From: Zestosphaera sp.
GTDB lineage: Archaea; Thermoproteota; Thermoprotei_A; Sulfolobales; NBVN01
Length of the DNA: 64,000 nucleotides
Assembly (NCBI GenBank): GCA_038843015.1
Contig: JAWBSH010000002.1
Coordinates: forward strand, 156,310 to 220,309
Direction: 5' to 3'
In this document: one piece after another, positions 544-64,000 of the stretch
How positions within the stretch are numbered: the stretch's first letter is position 1
How the letters are laid out: each line of letters starts with the position of its first letter
Notes under the pieces: model-generated
The model's database searches: none
What the model saw: only the letters and a program-made list of their open reading frames with translations
What the model was told of the DNA's origin: nothing
Made by a program: the position numbers and the translations under genes

Positions 544-2283
544 GTGATGAGCATCGAACGAATAACTAGAAGGTACTACAGACACTTGAGTCTACTGCCT
601 CGGAGGAGGTTCTTAGTAGTCATATATGTTTCCCTGGTCTTCCTAATCGGCATTGTTAATTCAGGGCGCTTCACTGCAGGAGATGTTCTTATCTCTATAG
701 GTACGTACTTCCTCTTAGGAAGTGTGTTGACTTTTATGTACTTACCCCTAATGCTCACTAAATTATTCAACGTTAAGAGAGTTCTTGGACTCTCTCTAGT
801 CACCTTTGCTATCTCCTTAATCGCGGAAATAATTCTTTATAGACTTACTGAGTTGAGAGGGTTAGGTCTAGTAGTCACTTCAGGCTTTATACTCATAATC
901 TTATCTGCTTTCACGAGCGTACGTCAGGCCTTAGCAGTTTCTCTAACAATACCCATCTTGACTCTTGTCTTAGTCAATACTGTACTGCTCGGGCAAGTAT
1001 TAAGTCGTGTACAATTAGTTAGTGCTTTAATGGTTGAGTCAGTCTCTGTACTTTTAGGGATTCTGCTTATTCGATACATTGATAGCAGGGGGAGACAGTT
1101 AAGCGGTGTCTCGCCCATAGTAGCCTTAAGAGCTTTTCTCAACACGTGGTTTACTGGCGAGCCTGAAAGACTCGAGAAACTCTTTGCTCATATAGGGTCT
1201 CAAGAAAGTATAGAAGTCAAAGCCGTAATCATTAAGCGTGAGTCAAAGCCCAGCATAATCATGGTATTCCCGCGAATTCATTTCGGTCCCTTCAACAACA
1301 TAGGTTCCTCTAGCTTCATACACTACGTTGACAGCTTCGCAGAGCCTGAGTTCAGAGTATTCACATTCCATACAGCAGGATCTCACGAGCATAACCTAGC
1401 TAGCAATAAAGATGCAGAGAGAATTGCTCACGAAATACTTACTAAAGTGAGGAGCTCTTTAAGTGACTCGTTTGAGGAACTCATGTGTGAACCTTACAGA
1501 ACTAGATTAAGCGATGGTTGGGAGGCTCTTACTCTTCGAGGTAGAGACTTCATAGCGCCGCTCATACTTAATAAGACATTAGGTAACGATGACATACCTT
1601 ACGATGCGTGGGACTACTTGAGCAAGCACCCTAAAACTCCCTCAAATACTATGATAGTTGACGCACACTCATGCAAGGGCGACAAAATCAGAGAACTCAA
1701 CAGTCTTAAAAACCTTCTAGATAAGGTAGCCGAAACTTATGAGTGTTCAGAACCTAGTGAGTTTCTAGTGGGATACGGAGAAATCAGGATCCCTAATACT
1801 TGCGTAGAGTTGTGTGACACGAGAGTAAAGACTTTAACTATACGAATAAAGAATAAAAGGTACGGGATCATCTACCTCTACGGGAACAACGTAGATAAGG
1901 AATTTCGAGCTAAGCTAGACAACATAATTAGAGAGAAAACAGACCTGTCAGATTTTGAGATAGTAACGCCAGATGACCACTCGTGTGCTGCTTCATTAAA
2001 AGAGTCTCCGTACGAGGTAGTTAAAGAGTGTGGCGGGCTTATTGAAGCAGTATTAAACTCGCTTAATAAGGCTTCAGAAGATGAAGCGCCAGCTTCTTAC
2101 AAGGTAGTGAGTCTCAAATTAGATAATGTGAGAGTAATGGGAGATAAGGTCTTCACGTTGATCGAGAGTCTTCACGTACTTGCTAAGAAGACAGAGATAG
2201 GGTTGCTTCTAATCTTCACGGTTCTCAACACTTTACTGCCATCAATATACGTAATTATAACGTCGTATATGACACTCTTTTAA
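544..2283 (+). CDS. multi-pass membrane protein with a large soluble domain and a C-terminal TM segment; function unknown (resembles archaeal DUF2070-type proteins from memory, unverified)
   Basis: The 579-aa ORF has about 5-6 hydrophobic helices in its first 190 aa, then a roughly 330-aa hydrophilic domain and a hydrophobic tail. An AT-rich promoter region lies upstream. Confidence 0.45.
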   Translation: MMSIERITRRYYRHLSLLPRRRFLVVIYVSLVFLIGIVNSGRFTAGDVLISIGTYFLLGSVLTFMYLPLMLTKLFNVKRVLGLSLVTFAISLIAEIILYRLTELRGLGLVVTSGFILIILSAFTSVRQALAVSLTIPILTLVLVNTVLLGQVLSRVQLVSALMVESVSVLLGILLIRYIDSRGRQLSGVSPIVALRAFLNTWFTGEPERLEKLFAHIGSQESIEVKAVIIKRESKPSIIMVFPRIHFGPFNNIGSSSFIHYVDSFAEPEFRVFTFHTAGSHEHNLASNKDAERIAHEILTKVRSSLSDSFEELMCEPYRTRLSDGWEALTLRGRDFIAPLILNKTLGNDDIPYDAWDYLSKHPKTPSNTMIVDAHSCKGDKIRELNSLKNLLDKVAETYECSEPSEFLVGYGEIRIPNTCVELCDTRVKTLTIRIKNKRYGIIYLYGNNVDKEFRAKLDNIIREKTDLSDFEIVTPDDHSCAASLKESPYEVVKECGGLIEAVLNSLNKASEDEAPASYKVVSLKLDNVRVMGDKVFTLIESLHVLAKKTEIGLLLIFTVLNTLLPSIYVIITSYMTLF

Positions 2284-2326
2284 TTCTCTTAGAGTTAAGA
2301 AAACTTAGCTCTTATGAAATTAAAGA

Positions 2327-3091
2327 TCATGCTTCTAGAGCTATTACTTCTCTTCTCTTAACTATCTTGTCTGGATATATTATTATGCCCTTATCTGTTA
2401 TTTCGAAAGGATGTCTCCTCATGTCATGTTTAGTTCCTCGCATCTTCCATATTAGTATTGACCTAGTTAAGACGCCGTCTAGCTCGTCTAGGTCTAGTCT
2501 TATTATTCCGTCAACGGCGTGCTCAACTCCCGGACCTCCGAACCCCCTCTCAGTGACACTTACTTGAGATACTAGAAATGTCGTCACGCCAAGTCCTGAG
2601 AGAACTCTCTTTAGTTGCATCAAAACACTCCTAGCTATAGAAGGCTTAGTTAAGTATAGTGTTGAGACAGAGTCTATCACGGCTCTCTGAGCCTTTGTAT
2701 CTTTCAACGCTTGCTTAACTACGTCTAGAAATTCTCCGATATCGTCAACACTCTTAACTACGTACTTCTCCCTCTTAGCAGCCTCACCTATCCCGCCCGT
2801 GAAGGCGTCTACTATGGCGAAAAAACCATCGTCTTCGTACTTCCTTATATCCCAACCAAACTCACTCATTTCTCTCCTAATCTGGATAGGGTGCTCCTCT
2901 AAAGTAACTAAGACACCAGGCTCGCCGTAAGTCAGTCCAAAATATAGGAATTGCTGACTCAGAATAGTTTTCCCAGTTCCTGGACCTCCTGAAATTAAGA
3001 CTATACTTCTCTTCGGGACTCCGCCAAAGAGTAGCTCATCTAGACCTGGAATACCGCTCCTCACTCTCTCGACCATGAGCACAACCCCCAA
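2327..3091 (-). CDS. KaiC/RadA-like RecA-superfamily ATPase (single domain)
   Basis: The N-terminus reads [30 protein letters not shown] (Walker A). A Walker B-like RAVIDSVS segment is also present. The true start is probably the internal Met at MVERV (about 3076). Confidence 0.75.
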
Positions 3092-3166
3092 TATTAAATA
3101 TAACGTAACAAATTAAGGTCTAAAGCAGTTATACTATTCAGTAGTTCAGTAAGGACTCAATGATAA

Positions 3167-4546
3167 TTATCTTATTATAGGCTTTGTCCAATTCCCGAAC
3201 TTTATCCAAGCAACACTTCCCAGACCTCCTACCACGTTGCTTAAGGCCATGGCAAGCCATATCCCGTAAGACTGTAAACCAGATATGTAGGCTAGGAAGT
3301 AACCTAAACCTATCCTAATCCCCCATAACCTAATCACGCCTAGCACTGTAGGCACGGTAGTGTGTCCTGATCCCCTACCTACAGACATGCCCACGAAAAA
3401 CATAGTAAAGAATGGTAAACTGAAGACAAAAGTCTCAAGAAATCTTAAAGCCTCTTCAAAGATCGCTGTGTCAGACGTGAATACAGAGATTAGCTGACTC
3501 CTTATTAAGAATACTGCTAAAGCACCAAGAGCCGTGAGTGAGGCTATAGTCAGTGATGACTTGTAAGCTATCTCACGAGACCTACTCATGTTACCAGCGC
3601 CTAGATTCTGCCCCACCATTATAGCTACTGGCATAGTCAAGCCCCACATAATGGCGTCAGCGAGATCCATTATTATGAACCCTATAGCGAAAGCTGCTGA
3701 CACTACCACCCCAAACGAATTTATGAGTGCGTTCTGAAACATGAAAGCTAAGCTATTAGAAGCGTGAAACAGGAATACGGGACCCCCTATACGAATATTC
3801 CTTAAAATCCACAATCTATCAATACTCTTCGTAGGAAGTATTCTCAAGTCAGGAAACTTACGTTTAGTTAAGTAAATCAACACAACAATACCGCCAAGTC
3901 TAGAAAGTACTGTGGCGAGAGCTGCACCAGCCGCACCCATCCTAGGGAAAGGAGGTATGCCGAGTATCAGGAAAGGATCCCAAACAATGTTTAGCAGAGC
4001 TGAGAAGCCTCCCACTATTGCTGGAGTTCTAGTGTCTCCCACAGACTGAAGTATCGTAGAGTAAGTTATTGAGAGTCCGGAAAGCATTAAATCAAGTGAT
4101 ATTATACCTGAATAACTCATTACATCATCAAATATCTCTGGCGGGACTCTAATCACGTAGTAGAACAAAGGATATCTCAGTGAGAAGTATGTTAAGCCGA
4201 AAGCTAAACTAGTTATCAAAGTTACAGTGAAAAACTTAGAAGCAACATTACTAGCTTCCTCATACTTTCTAGCACCAACATATTGAGAGAGGAGCGCCAT
4301 GTTAGCGGTTGAGATAGCCATGTTGAAAGCATTGAAGAACATGAAGGGGGGCCATGCCTGCCTAGGTACTGCCATAGCTACATCACTATACCTGCTCAAC
4401 CAGAACGCGTCAGCTACGTTATAAGACACATTCACTAACTGAACCAGCATGAGTGGGAATCCCAACCATAATAAAGTCTTAATTATAGGTCCGTTGACTA
4501 TCTCACTCCTATATCTATCTATGGTCGTTGCTGAAGAGCGAACCAC
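3167..4546 (-). CDS. MATE-family multidrug/oligosaccharide efflux transporter
   Basis: The 459-aa protein has about 12 predicted TM helices and the typical MATE N-terminus (PIIKTLLWLGFPLMLVQLVNVSYNVADAFWLS). Confidence 0.75.
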   Translation of the reverse strand: MVRSSATTIDRYRSEIVNGPIIKTLLWLGFPLMLVQLVNVSYNVADAFWLSRYSDVAMAVPRQAWPPFMFFNAFNMAISTANMALLSQYVGARKYEEASNVASKFFTVTLITSLAFGLTYFSLRYPLFYYVIRVPPEIFDDVMSYSGIISLDLMLSGLSITYSTILQSVGDTRTPAIVGGFSALLNIVWDPFLILGIPPFPRMGAAGAALATVLSRLGGIVVLIYLTKRKFPDLRILPTKSIDRLWILRNIRIGGPVFLFHASNSLAFMFQNALINSFGVVVSAAFAIGFIIMDLADAIMWGLTMPVAIMVGQNLGAGNMSRSREIAYKSSLTIASLTALGALAVFLIRSQLISVFTSDTAIFEEALRFLETFVFSLPFFTMFFVGMSVGRGSGHTTVPTVLGVIRLWGIRIGLGYFLAYISGLQSYGIWLAMALSNVVGGLGSVAWIKFGNWTKPIIR

Positions 4547-6217: not shown

Positions 6218-7270
6218 CTAGTAGTACATTATATTCAGTATTTTTCTAGGTGTAGTAGGGTAAGCCTCAACTACTCTGATTTGCTGATGTGTTGAGATTA
6301 CGTTTTTTAACTTCTTGAAGAGTTTCGTGCTTAAATATATCACTCCACCCTTCTTTAACGCGAGACTAGATAACACTAAGTAATTGATTAACTGATTGTC
6401 TTCGTAGGGTGCTTCAATCCATCTAACTGTGCCTTCCCTACTTATGATTTCATAAGGTAGTCTTGTTCTCTTGAATCTTTTTATGAGTCTCCTCCTATAC
6501 TGATACTTATCTTTGAATCTTGCCGGGCAATAATGAATGTTTAGTGTAATGCCCTCTTCTAACACCCAATTCATGACTTGTAAAGCTGCTTCTCTGGAAC
6601 CACTGACTGTAAGTCCGTCAGGGTTTATTTTAAACCCCTTACTTAAGATTCCAGCATAGTTAGACTCACTAACTTCCATCTCGTTTAGGTTTATGAACTG
6701 AACGCCGAGCCTATATCCTTCTCTGACGAGGTCTCTCAATTTACTGAAGTCTGGTATTGCTGGGTTCTCTATGCCTGTATTAAAACTATGATCTAGTGCG
6801 AGCTTTAAAGCACTCCATGAGTAAGGTCCTGTCACGTGTATTCTCAGTTCATCAAGTCCTGCATCACTTAACCTATCTAGGTGTTCTGCTTTAAGGTTCC
6901 TCCCGGTAGTGTACATGTGTATGTGGAAGCTCTTTCCTAGTACTTTCTTTAAAGTTCTTATTACTTCGATTACATAATCTATAGCGAGAAGAGGGTCTCC
7001 CCCAGTTATCCCAACACCTCTAGACCCAGAAGCCAAGACTTCTAAAACAATATCGTTTTTCCCACTTACGAGAACTTCATTAAGATACGCGTTAGTTTTT
7101 CCTCTCCTAGAGTTTGATATAGGGCAGTAGAAACACTTTTCATTACATGCTCCAGTCACGAAAAAAACACTCTTTAAACCCTTAATACATAAGTTGCATC
7201 CTTCCGGAAGCTTACCTATCCAGCAACCTAAGTCGTCACATCTGCTCGTGTCTAGCGCGTGACCCATCAA
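6218..7270 (-). CDS. radical SAM protein (pyruvate formate-lyase-activase-related, COG2108-like)
   Basis: A CX3CX2C cluster motif is present (GACNEKCFYCP), followed by GGDPLL. The N-terminus is Cys-rich. The gene lies 24 nt downstream of the ValRS-like gene on the same strand. Confidence 0.75.
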   Translation of the reverse strand: MMGHALDTSRCDDLGCWIGKLPEGCNLCIKGLKSVFFVTGACNEKCFYCPISNSRRGKTNAYLNEVLVSGKNDIVLEVLASGSRGVGITGGDPLLAIDYVIEVIRTLKKVLGKSFHIHMYTTGRNLKAEHLDRLSDAGLDELRIHVTGPYSWSALKLALDHSFNTGIENPAIPDFSKLRDLVREGYRLGVQFINLNEMEVSESNYAGILSKGFKINPDGLTVSGSREAALQVMNWVLEEGITLNIHYCPARFKDKYQYRRRLIKRFKRTRLPYEIISREGTVRWIEAPYEDNQLINYLVLSSLALKKGGVIYLSTKLFKKLKNVISTHQQIRVVEAYPTTPRKILNIMYY

Positions 7271-7294
7271 CTAGACCCTATGAAAGTAGGGTTC

Positions 7295-9733
7295 CTAGAC
7301 TACTAGGAAGATACCCTCAGCTAGCTTCACGGCATTACTTATATTGGCGGGAGCGCCTACAACTACCGATTTAATTTTATGCAAGTCTTTGATGTCGTAT
7401 GCTATCGCCTTATACTCCTCTGATAGGTAAAGTGTGCCCTCTAATGGTTCAGCGAACGATATGTTCCGCTCTTTCTTATACTTCCATATAGCTGAGTTAG
7501 CTGTTATTAGATACTCTACTAGCTTCTCATCACCACCTACGTCTCTCAAGTCTTCCTCAGTTATCGTAACATTTCTTAACCCACTACTAGAGTACATACA
7601 CCTCCATAAATAATCTGTAACGAAAGGCATTATCGGGTGCAGGGCCTTCAATATCAGTTTGAAGACTCTGTGTAGGACGTACCTAGCCCCATTCACGTAC
7701 TTAATGTCATAATCTCCTAAGCCATAAGCCCTCGACTTAACACTCTCGAGATAGTTCGACGCGAAAACATCCCACGCTAGAGCGTACAGCTCATTTATCG
7801 GTCTAAAAACATCAAATTCCTCATAATACTTAAGTACTCTCTTAATCACTGCTATAGAGTACTTAAGCATAGCTCTATCCAGGTCCTTTAAAACAGAATC
7901 CCTTAAAGGAGGTTCTTCGAAGAATGAAATAAACCTTCCTATATTAACTAGCTTAGTTGCGAAAGCTAGTCCACTCCTAACCACGTCTTCTGACCATCTA
8001 TAATCGCTTCCAAGCATTCCAGAAATTGCTGCCCAATACCTGAACGCATCAGCACCGTACTTCTCGACGTACGGTAGTGGCGGGACAATATTGCCGAGAG
8101 ACTTGTGCATGGCCCTACCCTTAGGGTCTAAACCCATGCCAGAGATCCTGACCCACCTAAAAGGAGGCTTACCAGTGAGTAACCAGACACGCAGTGTGGA
8201 GTAGTAGAGCCAGGTTCTTATTATATCGTATCCTTGAGGTCTGAGCGCGTGATCTAGTGCTTTAAGGGCTGCTTCCTTATCCTCAAGCCACCTAGTTACA
8301 TATAAGACACTAACAGATGAATCAAACCACGTGTCGAAAGTTCTAGACTCACCCACTAGTTCTTCTCGTGGAGCACCACAATTAGGGCATCTCTCGTAAG
8401 GTGGTGGATCTATCCATGGCCTTACATACTCCCCGTACCTGCCGAAGACTACGTGTCCGCATTTCCTGCACCTCCAAATAGGTATTTCAGTCCCGTAGAA
8501 TCTAGTTCTAGAAATAGGCCAATCCATCTTTAGTGAAGTCACCCAAGTATCAAACTTCACTTTATGCTCAGAAGGCTTGAAATCCATCATGTTGCCTACT
8601 CTGAGCACGTCTTCTTTAAAATCTAGTTGCTTCAAGAAAAACTCTCTAACGTGGATATACTCTACCGGCGTCTTACATCTCCAGCAGACAGGAACCTCGT
8701 GTTTCAAGTCTTCTTCTTTAATTAAGAAATTATTCTTACGTAACTCTTCTACTATAACCTTCCTAGCTTCTCTAACGTTTAACCCCTTAAGAAATCCTGC
8801 GTTCTCGTTCATAGTACCGTCTGAGTTGATGAGTATCTTAGGAGTAAGTCCTTGCTCCTTAAAAAACCAGATATCTCTAGTGTCTCCGTAAGAACACATC
8901 ATAGCTAGGCCTGTCCCGAATTCCGGATTAGCGTACGTACTAGGCATTATAGGTACTACATTATTATATAAGGGCACGACCGCGTGCTTCCCCTCAAGAT
9001 ACTTATACCTGGCATCGCTGGGATGGAAAATAACAGCGCCGCATCCATTAAGTAGCTCAGGTCGAGTAGTAGCTATCACTACATCCTCGTTAGTTTCTGC
9101 GACTACAAACCTGATATAGTATAGCTTACCGTCCTCTTCTTTCGTCTCTATTTCTGCCTCAGCAAGTGACGTCCTACATCTGGGACACCACATCACTGGT
9201 CTCTCAGCCTCGTATATGAGACCCTTATTCCATAAGTCAATGAACGTGGCTTGAGTTAGTCTCCTATACTTGGGTGAGTCTGTTCCGTCAGTCCAATACT
9301 GGTATGAGCACCCTAATCTCTTCCACACTTTAACTAAGGAGGCCTCATACTCGTCCAAGACCTCACTAACTAGTTTAAGAAACTTGAGTCTGCCCTCAGG
9401 AGTATTAGCTATCTCATGTGCTGAAATCCCGTACCGTTTTTCTACTGTTACCTCACCAGGCAAGCCATTCCTGTCTGCGTAAAAAGGTAGCATAACTTTA
9501 TACCCGAGTAGTCTCAACGCGCGAGCTACCATATCTATCTGAACATAATGAGCTGCCTGACCAACCCCCCATTCTCCAGAAGGATAAGGCGGCGGCGTAT
9601 CTATAACAACGTACTTATCTTCATTTAGAAAATCAATCACAGTCTCTTCAAATTCTTTCTCCCACTTCTCGAGTAACTCCTCCTCGATAGAGGGACTCCA
9701 CCTCTTAACTTTTACTTTCGGCTCTAGCGCCAC
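7295..9733 (-). CDS. valS: valyl-tRNA synthetase-like class Ia aminoacyl-tRNA synthetase (HIGH signature not recognisable)
   Basis: The 812-aa protein starts at a GTG. It has the DTPPPYPSG entry to the Rossmann fold, the TTRPELL editing-domain motif, a CPRCRTSL/CWRCKTPV/CRKCGH/CPNCG zinc-knuckle pattern and a KMSKS-like GRAMHKSLGN. It also has a class Ia anticodon-binding tail (DRAML...NYLESVKSR). Confidence 0.7.
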   Translation of the reverse strand: MALEPKVKVKRWSPSIEEELLEKWEKEFEETVIDFLNEDKYVVIDTPPPYPSGEWGVGQAAHYVQIDMVARALRLLGYKVMLPFYADRNGLPGEVTVEKRYGISAHEIANTPEGRLKFLKLVSEVLDEYEASLVKVWKRLGCSYQYWTDGTDSPKYRRLTQATFIDLWNKGLIYEAERPVMWCPRCRTSLAEAEIETKEEDGKLYYIRFVVAETNEDVVIATTRPELLNGCGAVIFHPSDARYKYLEGKHAVVPLYNNVVPIMPSTYANPEFGTGLAMMCSYGDTRDIWFFKEQGLTPKILINSDGTMNENAGFLKGLNVREARKVIVEELRKNNFLIKEEDLKHEVPVCWRCKTPVEYIHVREFFLKQLDFKEDVLRVGNMMDFKPSEHKVKFDTWVTSLKMDWPISRTRFYGTEIPIWRCRKCGHVVFGRYGEYVRPWIDPPPYERCPNCGAPREELVGESRTFDTWFDSSVSVLYVTRWLEDKEAALKALDHALRPQGYDIIRTWLYYSTLRVWLLTGKPPFRWVRISGMGLDPKGRAMHKSLGNIVPPLPYVEKYGADAFRYWAAISGMLGSDYRWSEDVVRSGLAFATKLVNIGRFISFFEEPPLRDSVLKDLDRAMLKYSIAVIKRVLKYYEEFDVFRPINELYALAWDVFASNYLESVKSRAYGLGDYDIKYVNGARYVLHRVFKLILKALHPIMPFVTDYLWRCMYSSSGLRNVTITEEDLRDVGGDEKLVEYLITANSAIWKYKKERNISFAEPLEGTLYLSEEYKAIAYDIKDLHKIKSVVVGAPANISNAVKLAEGIFLVV

Positions 9734-62896: not shown

Positions 62897-63624
62897 CTGT
62901 TAACACCTGTCTTATGTATGAAGTCAGCAGTCTCTTCATAGGTAAGTTTCCTGAATATACCCTCTTCTAAAGTTACTATGCCTACCTCAATTAAGTCTGG
63001 AGAGAGGCCTTCCTCGGTAGAGGCTCTGAGAGCTTTTAAGGCTAACTCGATAGCGCCTTCCTTATCCACTTTCTTATCATAGTTTTTCTCTAGATACTCC
63101 ATAGCAGGCTGTTCCCCAGACCCAACAGCTAGAGCTAAGTAAGCAAAGTAATACCCATTTATCTCAGTCTTAAAAACGTGAATGCCTTTCTTATCCCTGC
63201 CCACGAAAATTAACGAGACACCGAAGGGTCTGACGCCAGCGTGTTGTGTGTAGAGCTGCTTTACATCACAAACAGCCTTAACCACATACTCTACGTCAGC
63301 GGGCTCGTCATACACGAACCTGTAGTTGAGTGCTTCTCTCCTAGCATAGTCTATTAAGATCCTGCCGTCAGCAGCTAAACCAGCGAAAGAAGCCCCCATA
63401 TGAGAGTCAACTAGAAATATCTTATTTATTGAGTTCATGTCTATAAGTGTTGATATCCTCCTCTTCTCAGCTACTAAAACACCGACTTCGTCTGTCTTGA
63501 GAGCTACAGTAGTCCAACCCTTCCTGACGTTCTCGGCAGCATACTCAACCTGGTATAGCTTACCGTCAGGTGAGAACACCGTTATAGCTCTATCGTAACC
63601 GAGAGCTGGTGGACCGAAAGCCAT
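62893..63624 (-). CDS. psmA: proteasome alpha subunit
   Basis: The alpha-subunit signature YDRAITVFSPDGKLYQVEYA is present. A TTTATATTA box lies on the minus strand at 63657-63665. Confidence 0.9.
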   Translation of the reverse strand: MAFGPPALGYDRAITVFSPDGKLYQVEYAAENVRKGWTTVALKTDEVGVLVAEKRRISTLIDMNSINKIFLVDSHMGASFAGLAADGRILIDYARREALNYRFVYDEPADVEYVVKAVCDVKQLYTQHAGVRPFGVSLIFVGRDKKGIHVFKTEINGYYFAYLALAVGSGEQPAMEYLEKNYDKKVDKEGAIELALKALRASTEEGLSPDLIEVGIVTLEEGIFRKLTYEETADFIHKTGVNR

Positions 63625-63928
63625 TTCCTAACCCTCTAACTCTTAATCGCGTGAAGTAATATAAACCTTCGACTTAACTAGCAATGACAAGTCTTCTCAG
63701 GAAGTACTTCCGAGTCTTACCTAAAAATAATAACCTCGTCCTTGAATCAAGTGTTGATTATATGTCTCGCCACGCATGAGAAGAGAACCGAAGAGAAAAC
63801 ATTGAGAAAGTAGCGATACAAGAAGCTAAATACTTGACCAAATATGAGAAACTCTATAAGAAGATCTAGTCTGTTGCTTGAGCCTCAAGTGAGTTGAAAT
63901 GGTGGGGGGACGGGTCTACTGAGGGCGA

Positions 63929-63967
63929 TATGAGCCCCGCGGGCTAACCTGGCTACCCCACCCCGCT
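63929..63967 (-). tRNA. 5' half (positions 1-37) of initiator tRNA-Met (anticodon CAT); no 3' half adjacent
   Basis: The minus strand reads AGCGGGG TG GGGT AGCCAGGTTA GCCC G CGGGG CTCATA. This gives A1, the acceptor strand, a complete D arm, the GGG run in the anticodon stem and a CAU anticodon. The sequence stops being tRNA-like exactly after position 37. Confidence 0.7.
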
Positions 63968-64000
63968 ACTCTGTCCCCCTACTCATTATTAGTAATTACG

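Follow-up and report, generated by a model that had tools for sequence, protein, structure and literature searches.

The minus strand at the end of a 64,000-nucleotide (nt) window from a Zestosphaera species (Desulfurococcaceae; assembly GCA_038843015.1, contig JAWBSH010000002.1, positions 156,310 to 220,309) carries one half of an initiator methionine tRNA (tRNAiMet) gene. Judging from comparison with related genomes, this locus is very probably the 5′-half gene of a trans-spliced (split) tRNAiMet. The two separately located pieces make up one cloverleaf, and a complementary trailer and leader abut the exon junction. A sequence-only reading of the window had left three options for this half (split gene, permuted gene or decayed fragment), and the first of them was borne out when a partner with a complementary leader was identified in assemblies of the window's species. 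Comparison loci are cited below by their L numbers.

The half corresponds to tRNAiMet(CAU) positions 1–37, spans 63929–63967 on the minus strand and reads AGCGGGGTGGGGTAGCCAGGTTAGCCCGCGGGGCTCATA. Its 39 bases comprise the 37 tRNA positions and two additional D-loop bases, covering the 5′ strand of the acceptor stem, the D arm, the 5′ strand of the anticodon stem and the anticodon loop to A37, so that the 5′ exon ends at 63929. It has A1 and the anticodon CAT, and its anticodon stem is closed by three G:C pairs. Positions 1–37 of the uninterrupted tRNAiMet of Zestosphaera tikiterensis are identical to the half in the window, which together with our own reading confirms the assignment made from the sequence alone. 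Directly after the half, in place of A38-CCCCG, the minus strand (63928–63901) reads TCGCCCTCAGTAGACCCGTCCCCCCACC. The half and its trailer have a G+C content of 70.1 % vs 42.6 % in the entire window, in agreement with the previously noted contrast to an AT-leaning region. The approximately 300 nt down to psmA (ATG at 63624) contain neither a return strand of the anticodon stem nor a T arm or CCCCGCT, as had been stated before, and the same 3′ parts were likewise missing from the whole 64-kb window.

To describe the expected partner, we derived its layout from a bulge-helix-bulge at 37/38, i.e. a leader able to pair with the trailer, some 4 nt opposite C32–A35 as their pairing strand, two bulge nucleotides and A38-CCCCG…CCCCGCTA. 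A search pattern with GAGGGCG adjoining ACCCCG recovered the partner in only one metagenome-assembled genome (MAG; L140). This pattern was too strict because the leader in the lineage of the window has an extra bulged base (GAGGG-T-CG). The 3′ half in L140 is neighboured by tRNA-Arg(CCG) and a TIM-barrel gene, and following the homologues of this TIM-barrel protein resulted in ten 3′-half loci. All ten belong to the window's species and contain a free-standing 3′ half (nt 38–76) with encoded CCA. They read …AAAACTTTATAAGGTGTGGTTGTTTTAGGATTTAT|GGGTCTACTGAGGGTCGTGTGAG|ACCCCGAGGTCGGTGGTTCAAATCCACCCCCCGCTACCA|CTTTGTTTTCTTATTTTCTG, being composed of the leader, A38-CCCCG, the variable loop, the T arm and CCCCGCTA, followed by a T-rich tail. 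Three of the ten come from assemblies which also hold a 5′ half of the window type, each time on a different contig: GCA_038895735.1 (5′ half L149, 3′ half L278), GCA_038879975.1 (L147 and L284) and GCA_038828845.1 (L144 and L286). In GCA_038895735.1, the halves lie 58,033 and 86,573 nt from the nearest contig ends, which places them at least about 144 kb apart. A metagenome scan for the partner returned the L140 organism again and no other.

The 3′ half is situated between tRNA-Arg(CCG) and the TIM-barrel (AP_endonuc_2) gene and has its own TTTATAA box, with the invariant TTTATAAG located 22 nt ahead of the leader. Transcription of the 3′ half is predicted to start at GGGTCTAC. Conserved boxes at archaeal spacing precede both halves, which points to a promoter of its own for each of them. 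The predicted precursors are …GGGGGACAGAGU-AGCGGGG…CUCAUA-UCGCCCUCAGUAGACCC… and GGGUCUACUGAGGGUCGUGUGAG-ACCCCG…CCA. Since many relatives have the mature tRNA sequence too, these precursors would be what marks the species. The 3′ half has the architecture that the sequence-only reading had expected of the partner, but the anticipated “GGTGGGGGGAC-like” leader was wrong, as the actual leader pairs with the proximal trailer CGCCCTCAGTAGACCC and not with the distal GTCCCCCCACC. In one strain of the window's species (L284), the place upstream of tRNA-Arg and the 3′ half that otherwise holds a HEPN/nucleotidyltransferase pair is taken by a Cas12f1/TnpB-like gene (1616–2479), which indicates mobile-element activity next to the 3′-half locus.

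The proximal trailer CGCCCTCAGTAGACCC (63912–63927, minus strand) would be paired in trans to the 3′-half leader GGGTCTACTGAGGG-T-CG. The first 14 bases of the leader, GGGTCTACTGAGGG, are the exact complement of the trailer bases 63925–63912, so that the trans helix consists of 14 contiguous bp and of 2 bp past one bulged U. The earlier suggestion that the GC-rich trailer is a zipper sequence therefore holds for its proximal part. Both halves were also found in a second species (CAYZXH01), the 5′ half on contig 13 (L003) and the 3′ half on contig 1 (L215), where the leader is GGGTCTACTGAGGGTAGTGTGAG. The leader of the L182 3′ half is GGGTCTGCTGAGGG, and for the corresponding 5′-half trailer we predict either the compensatory CCCTCAGCAGACCC or an unchanged U that would pair by wobble. 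Scanning genomes with the 14-mer GGGTCTACTGAGGG was unspecific, with chance matches among the matches listed. One copy of GGGTCTACTGAGGG (L065, CAZWSU010000071.1, 4015–4028) lies on the same contig and strand as the L004 5′ half, approximately 4.4 kb from it, but within a coding region and with no tRNA sequence after it. We treated this copy as a chance match, though the prior probability of such a match is low.

Joined together, the two halves (nt 1–37 and nt 38–76) are identical, base for base, to the intact Z. tikiterensis tRNAiMet. That gene scores 65.1 bits with the Rfam tRNA model (gathering threshold 29) and is called tRNA-Met(CAT) by ARAGORN. When the two predicted transcripts were co-folded (−83.3 kcal/mol), the acceptor, anticodon and T stems as well as the zipper were all formed. 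At the exon junction, a bulge-helix-bulge can be drawn in the canonical register, which we took from the leader of the partner (...UGUGAG|A38). Its 5′ side occupies 63928–63934 on the minus strand: C32–A35 (63934–63931) form the 5′ strand of the 4-bp central helix, and U36, A37 and the first trailer base U (63930–63928) form the 3-nt 5′ bulge, with the cleavage site predicted between 63929 and 63928. In full, the 3′ bulge is A(-2) G(-1) | A38, the 5′ bulge is U36 A37 | U, and the 2+14-bp helix follows. The central helix consists of C32:G(-3), the U33-U(-4) mismatch, C34:G(-5) and A35:U(-6), and the pairs C32:G, C34:G and A35:U are invariant in all six genomes in which both halves are known. 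The junction CUCAUA|U…UGUGAG|A is common to related genes with cis-introns of 17–27 nt, and eight related MAGs have cis-introns of 17–18 nt at the same boundaries. Regarding variation of the junction, a perfect UGAG central strand is present in L261, L274 and L219, and the bulge-helix-bulge is the minimum-free-energy structure in L172 and L257.

For an analysis of covariation, we aligned the junction, trailer and leader of six genomes, a small depth for which the shuffle control is only suggestive. The in-register pairing amounted to 90.3 % of cells vs 30–52 % after sliding the partner strand by 1–3 columns. Two pairs display double-sided changes (G:C to A:U and C:G to U:A), and three further pairs vary by wobble. 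The stronger argument is a qualitative one and comes from zippers that are unrelated in sequence and still complementary. The tandem loci of Acidilobaceae (L172), Desulfurococcales (L189 and L202) and Aeropyrum sp. (L257) have trailers entirely different from those of Zestosphaera, yet each trailer is matched by its own leader over 11–15 perfect bp. Two observations were made at these loci. In the tandem loci of Acidilobaceae, Aeropyrum and Desulfurococcales (L172 7166–7490, L202, L189, L257 and L266), the 5′ leader GGCGGGG is complementary to a CCCCGCC a few nt past the encoded CCA of the 3′ half, and in the assembled precursor this helix could lengthen the acceptor stem. The two halves of L189 lie 1.6 kb apart with an antisense gene between them (1834–3225, minus strand). 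We considered a transposase or integrase, but the gene encodes an archaeal ATPase matching PF01637, with a DUF234 match just under the cut-off, and gives no support for a mobile element at this locus.

The conservation of the locus is confined to the half and its trailer. The 39-nt half is identical at 39/39 positions across all nine aligned loci, and trailer bases 1–18 are identical (18/18) in five species, in which the half plus 18 trailer nt is unchanged. The exact 57-mer made of the half and these 18 nt is present in four other Desulfurococcaceae/Zestosphaera MAGs, with a different downstream context. Outside the half and trailer, column identity falls to about 30–40 %, and only 13–18 of the 43 positions past the trailer are identical in the closest relatives. 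Such a regional pattern suggests purifying selection and is unlike that of a decaying fragment. The decayed-fragment option is very unlikely, given that neither the half nor the zipper varies between these species and that covariation links the zipper to its partner.

To see the sequence upstream of the half, we looked up the exact psmA protein of the window and obtained six contigs of the window's species which reach past position 64000; the missing stretch was taken from L145 (GCA_038839925.1), which has one mismatch to the window in 11,108 nt. A TATA-like box, CTTAAAAACC, lies just outside the window (approximately 64002–64011), 34 nt upstream of nt 1, where it overlaps the stop codon of the DUF1152 gene. 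It is identical at 10/10 positions in all eight comparisons and is common to the intact gene. The sequence-only reading had placed the TATA-like element at 63985–63998. We rejected this AT-rich stretch, as it falls in the only partly conserved spacer between the box and the G-run (63981–64000, minus strand; 8–16 of 22 positions identical), and the invariant box is CTTAAAAACC, farther upstream.

Between this spacer and the half is the 5′ leader AGGGGGACAGAGT (63968–63980, minus strand), with the G-run GGGGGAC at 63979–63973, which is kept in all nine loci including the intact gene. Judging from its distance to the conserved TATA-like box, the G-run is the predicted start of the 5′-half transcript, and the leader presumably represents the beginning of the primary transcript that is removed by RNase P. 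The distal trailer GTCCCCCCACC (63901–63911, minus strand) contains a C-run, which lies outside the trans helix and is complementary to the G-run of the leader. The 7-nt complementarity of GGGGGAC (63979–63973) and GTCCCCC (63911–63905), noticed already from the sequence alone, is real, and the pairing potential is conserved in relatives. The length of the C-run is polymorphic between strains of the window's species (6, 7 or 11 C). When the 5′-half transcript was folded alone, the G-run and C-run made a closing stem (−35.6 kcal/mol). A pairing potential of 6–8 bp is kept in both tandem and dispersed forms (L151 3590–3680, L261, L274, L001–L004), and in the intact gene of Z. tikiterensis, as in the genes with a short intron, the G-run is present without a C-run. 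Farther downstream, the hairpin described earlier exists at 63889–63877 (CTTGA-GGC-TCAAG), although its loop is GGC and not gcc. As it is absent from the relatives, we rejected it as a conserved terminator.

The genus and its close relatives contain three arrangements of the gene. In Z. tikiterensis, the uninterrupted tRNAiMet sits between DUF1152 and psmA, where the window has the half alone, in the order TIM barrel (divergent), DUF1152, tRNA, psmA. In the tandem form, the halves are 119–242 nt apart in the order psmA (divergent), DUF1152, 5′ half, 3′ half, TIM barrel; this form is represented by L274 (Zestosphaera sp. JAWBLQ01), L261 and L151–153. The dispersed form is found in the window's species and in L001–L004/L215, L150, L156, L143 and L182, with DUF1152, 5′ half and psmA at one locus and tRNA-Arg (divergent), 3′ half and TIM barrel elsewhere. 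Inversions of the DUF1152(+tRNA) segment distinguish these gene orders, and one breakpoint falls between the halves. The identity of the TIM-barrel protein to the L143 reference is 84–90 % in the nearest homologues (86 % in L150 and 89 % in L156, both dispersed), 71 % in the tandem form and 64 % in Z. tikiterensis. These stepped identities are consistent with a recent, stepwise split. In L152, type III CRISPR-Cas genes (Csx1, a Cas_APE2256-family protein and Cas10; 6468–8846) are located a few kb downstream of the tandem tRNAiMet locus.

A wider view was obtained by scanning genomes with the 36-nt 3′ body, a sequence common to intact tRNAiMet genes across Thermoproteota. About 130 loci were among the matches listed, from which the 3′ halves of L001, L002 and L004 were missing, and the counts by lineage are lower bounds, so that absences carry little weight. 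At least 101 of the loci are intact, at least 12 have a short intron at 37/38, and at least 17 have a TATA-like box instead of a 5′ half within 120 nt upstream. Split or tandem tRNAiMet genes with unrelated zippers are also present in Acidilobaceae, Aeropyrum and other Desulfurococcales MAGs. In one Thermoproteota MAG (L205, JAADCU010000015.1), two 3′ bodies lie on the same strand about 850 nt apart (3656–3691 and 4509–4544); CTCATA stands directly upstream of both, so they look like two intact genes.

We propose that the two half transcripts anneal via the 14(+2)-bp leader-trailer helix and via the acceptor and anticodon stems, and that this annealing would present the bulge-helix-bulge at 37/38. 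The archaeal splicing endonuclease would cut both bulges, an RtcB-type ligase would join A37 to A38, and RNase P and 3′ trimming would complete the tRNA. Historically, the gene may have been split recently within the genus from the form that is intact in Z. tikiterensis. It would have passed through a tandem stage with a promoter between the halves, still found in sister species, before local inversions moved the halves apart.

Several points weigh against a functional trans-spliced gene. That either half is transcribed, cleaved and ligated is inferred from sequence. In the co-fold of minimum free energy, the junction is closed up as one continuous helix (C32:G(-1) etc.), and the canonical bulge-helix-bulge register, with its U33-U mismatch in the central helix, is approximately 11 kcal/mol above it. 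Three cis-intron genes that we folded (L177, L186 and L222, with introns of 17, 18 and 27 nt) have an equal penalty of 9–13 kcal/mol. We do not regard the energy of junction zipping as a problem, because these genes have the same boundaries and are necessarily spliced, and because other lineages have a perfect central strand or the bulge-helix-bulge as the minimum-free-energy structure. A further intact tRNAiMet may exist elsewhere in the genome, the search for one having covered the window and the loci around the two halves. No intact copy was found in the 64-kb window, in the 20-kb loci around the 5′ half or in the 7-kb loci around the 3′ half, and in the window's species the half stands where synteny would place the intact gene. 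The last point concerns the bin “Desulfurococcaceae archaeon KM4337-20”, which holds the free 3′ half of L140 together with an intact tRNAiMet (L226). The L140 contig (JBMFML010000029.1) is Zestosphaera-like with a coverage of 2.4, and the L226 contig (JBMFML010000010.1) is Thermosphaera-like with a coverage of 5.3. The intact gene of L226 lies between PGDH and AspRS and has a different D arm, no encoded CCA and about twice the contig coverage. Based on the differing coverage and D arm and the Thermosphaera-type synteny, we rejected L226 as a second tRNAiMet copy. The bin is probably mixed.

One alternative is that both halves are dead relics of a rearranged tRNAiMet and that translation uses an intact gene elsewhere. 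An intact copy might exist in another part of the genome, since most Desulfurococcaceae keep tRNAiMet at a different locus (PGDH-iMet-AspRS), and KM4337-20 combines a free 3′ half with an intact gene. We nevertheless consider this explanation unlikely. Relics would decay, whereas the half and 18 trailer bases that are not part of the tRNA are identical in five species while the flanks diverge. The leader and trailer, also not tRNA sequence, are still complementary and covary, and both promoter boxes are invariant. The contig with the intact gene of KM4337-20 differs in coverage, has a gene order of the Thermosphaera type and belongs to a probably mixed bin. In one abundant co-occurring organism, which may or may not be the window's species, no tRNAiMet adjoins AspRS. 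That the half acts as a stand-alone small RNA, a regulator resembling tRNA halves which is never joined, is very unlikely. The transcript does fold closed on its own through the conserved G-run/C-run pairing, but a lone RNA leaves unexplained both the covarying complementarity to the leader of the 3′ half and the fact that the pieces sum exactly to the orthologous intact tRNA.

Integrating viruses and plasmids are a common origin of tRNA fragments in Crenarchaeota. The half could accordingly be an attachment-site (att) remnant, a partial tRNA copy left by such an element, as integration into tRNA genes does leave half-length duplicates and mobile-element genes occur near some 3′-half loci, e.g. 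the TnpB/Cas12f-like gene in L284. This origin is highly improbable, for it needs an intact gene, and the window and the 20-kb loci contain neither an intact gene nor the half in a second copy. We found no duplicate of an intact tRNA bounding an integrase element, integrases not having been searched for explicitly. Moreover, the break lies exactly at 37/38 in a junction compatible with a bulge-helix-bulge, a complementary partner with its own promoter exists, and the arrangement is stable between housekeeping genes across at least five species. The permuted gene of the sequence-only reading, with the 3′ half upstream beyond 64000, was refuted by extending the sequence. The window stops 33 nt upstream of the half, so the question was undecidable from the window alone, and a permuted tRNAiMet is known from Thermofilum pendens (PMC3218864). 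In six assemblies of the window's species, however, the end of the coding sequence of DUF1152 lies 39 nt upstream of nt 1 and no 3′ half is present in 9.6 kb upstream; with these two results a permuted gene is excluded, and the actual 3′ half is on another contig.

Regarding routine annotation, ARAGORN and Rfam at the gathering threshold made no tRNA call in the whole 64-kb window. A permissive Rfam scan of 63600–64000 gave only noise, as the tRNA model reports no bare half. Split and tandem tRNAiMet genes are missed by both tools in the window and in L151, L261, L172 and L278. Because of this, routine annotation and completeness checks would take such genomes to be without an initiator tRNA.

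The mechanism of trans-splicing is already known, and it is the series within one genus that is unusually complete, with an intact gene, a tandem form with an internal promoter and a dispersed form, all with identical exons and traceable synteny. The series provides direct evidence that the split is derived via local rearrangement, which bears on the “split-early versus split-late” debate about the origin of tRNA. For the crenarchaeal splicing endonuclease, the same genes offer a natural substrate set whose bulge-helix-bulge ranges from strict to relaxed. A promoter-like box precedes the 3′ half in each of the tandem or free-standing cases that we recovered (Zestosphaera, Acidilobaceae, Aeropyrum and other Desulfurococcales MAGs). 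It is conceivable, if rather doubtful, that splitting of tRNAiMet is recurrent and selected in hyperthermophilic Thermoproteota and not a neutral accident. If so, the supply of initiator tRNA might be controlled by two promoters under independent regulation together with an assembly step, or, alternatively, the broken gene might be shielded from elements integrating into tRNA genes.

The joining of split tRNAs at a bulge-helix-bulge is established for Nanoarchaeum equitans, including tRNAiMet at 37/38, and for Caldivirga (PMC3218864, PMC4033280). Trans-spliced tRNA genes are rare, and a 2014 review counted 29 of them in seven genomes (PMC4033280). In the literature we searched, whose coverage is incomplete, we found no report of a split tRNAiMet in Desulfurococcaceae, Zestosphaera, Acidilobaceae or Aeropyrum, and the split initiator was known only from Nanoarchaeum. 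The split tRNAiMet(CAU) of N. equitans (Randau et al. 2005, tabulated in PMC3218864) resembles that of Zestosphaera in the isoacceptor, the 37/38 split point, the separately transcribed halves, the GC-rich leader-trailer helix and the bulge-helix-bulge cut by the splicing endonuclease. It differs in belonging to Nanoarchaeota and not Thermoproteota, in its unrelated zipper sequences and in the CCA, which is encoded by the 3′ half of Zestosphaera. The Zestosphaera split is independent of the split in N. equitans, and the uninterrupted gene that a congeneric species keeps at this locus indicates that it is recent.

Another disrupted initiator gene of Thermoproteota that needs the bulge-helix-bulge endonuclease is the permuted tRNAiMet of T. 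pendens (PMC3218864). There, the 3′ part lies upstream in a single transcript, with the junction at 59/60 and an intron at 37/38, whereas the window locus is not permuted. Exons near-identical to those of Zestosphaera are found in the cis-intron tRNAiMet genes of Desulfurococcaceae/“Sulfolobales” MAGs (L177, L186, L188, L211, L214, L239, L253 and L262), which have an identical 36-nt 3′ body and the same boundaries, CUCAUA|U ... UGUGAG|A, including the U33-U mismatch. Their 5′ exon has the D loop GCCTGGT-AGCCC in contrast to GCCAGGTTAGCCC, and they are single transcripts with an intron of 17–18 nt, while the “intron” of Zestosphaera is divided between two transcripts with separate promoters, the trailer on one and the leader on the other.

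Similar cases are the “recently split” tRNAs of the same order, Desulfurococcales, namely tRNAAsp(GUC) in Aeropyrum pernix as well as in Thermosphaera aggregans, along with tRNALys(CUU) in Staphylothermus (Chan, Cozen & Lowe 2011, PMC3218864). Among them, the Asp genes have the same split point, 37/38, and the A. pernix halves are adjacent with separate promoters (PMC3218864), as in the tandem Zestosphaera loci L151, L261 and L274. The trans helix is comparable as well, 13 nt there vs 14+2 in Zestosphaera, and a compensatory change between sister species has been reported there. The isoacceptors are different, the initiator not being among those cases, and the halves are adjacent or about 5 kb apart, in contrast to at least 144 kb in Zestosphaera. 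Zestosphaera further differs in that intact, tandem and dispersed states all occur within one genus.

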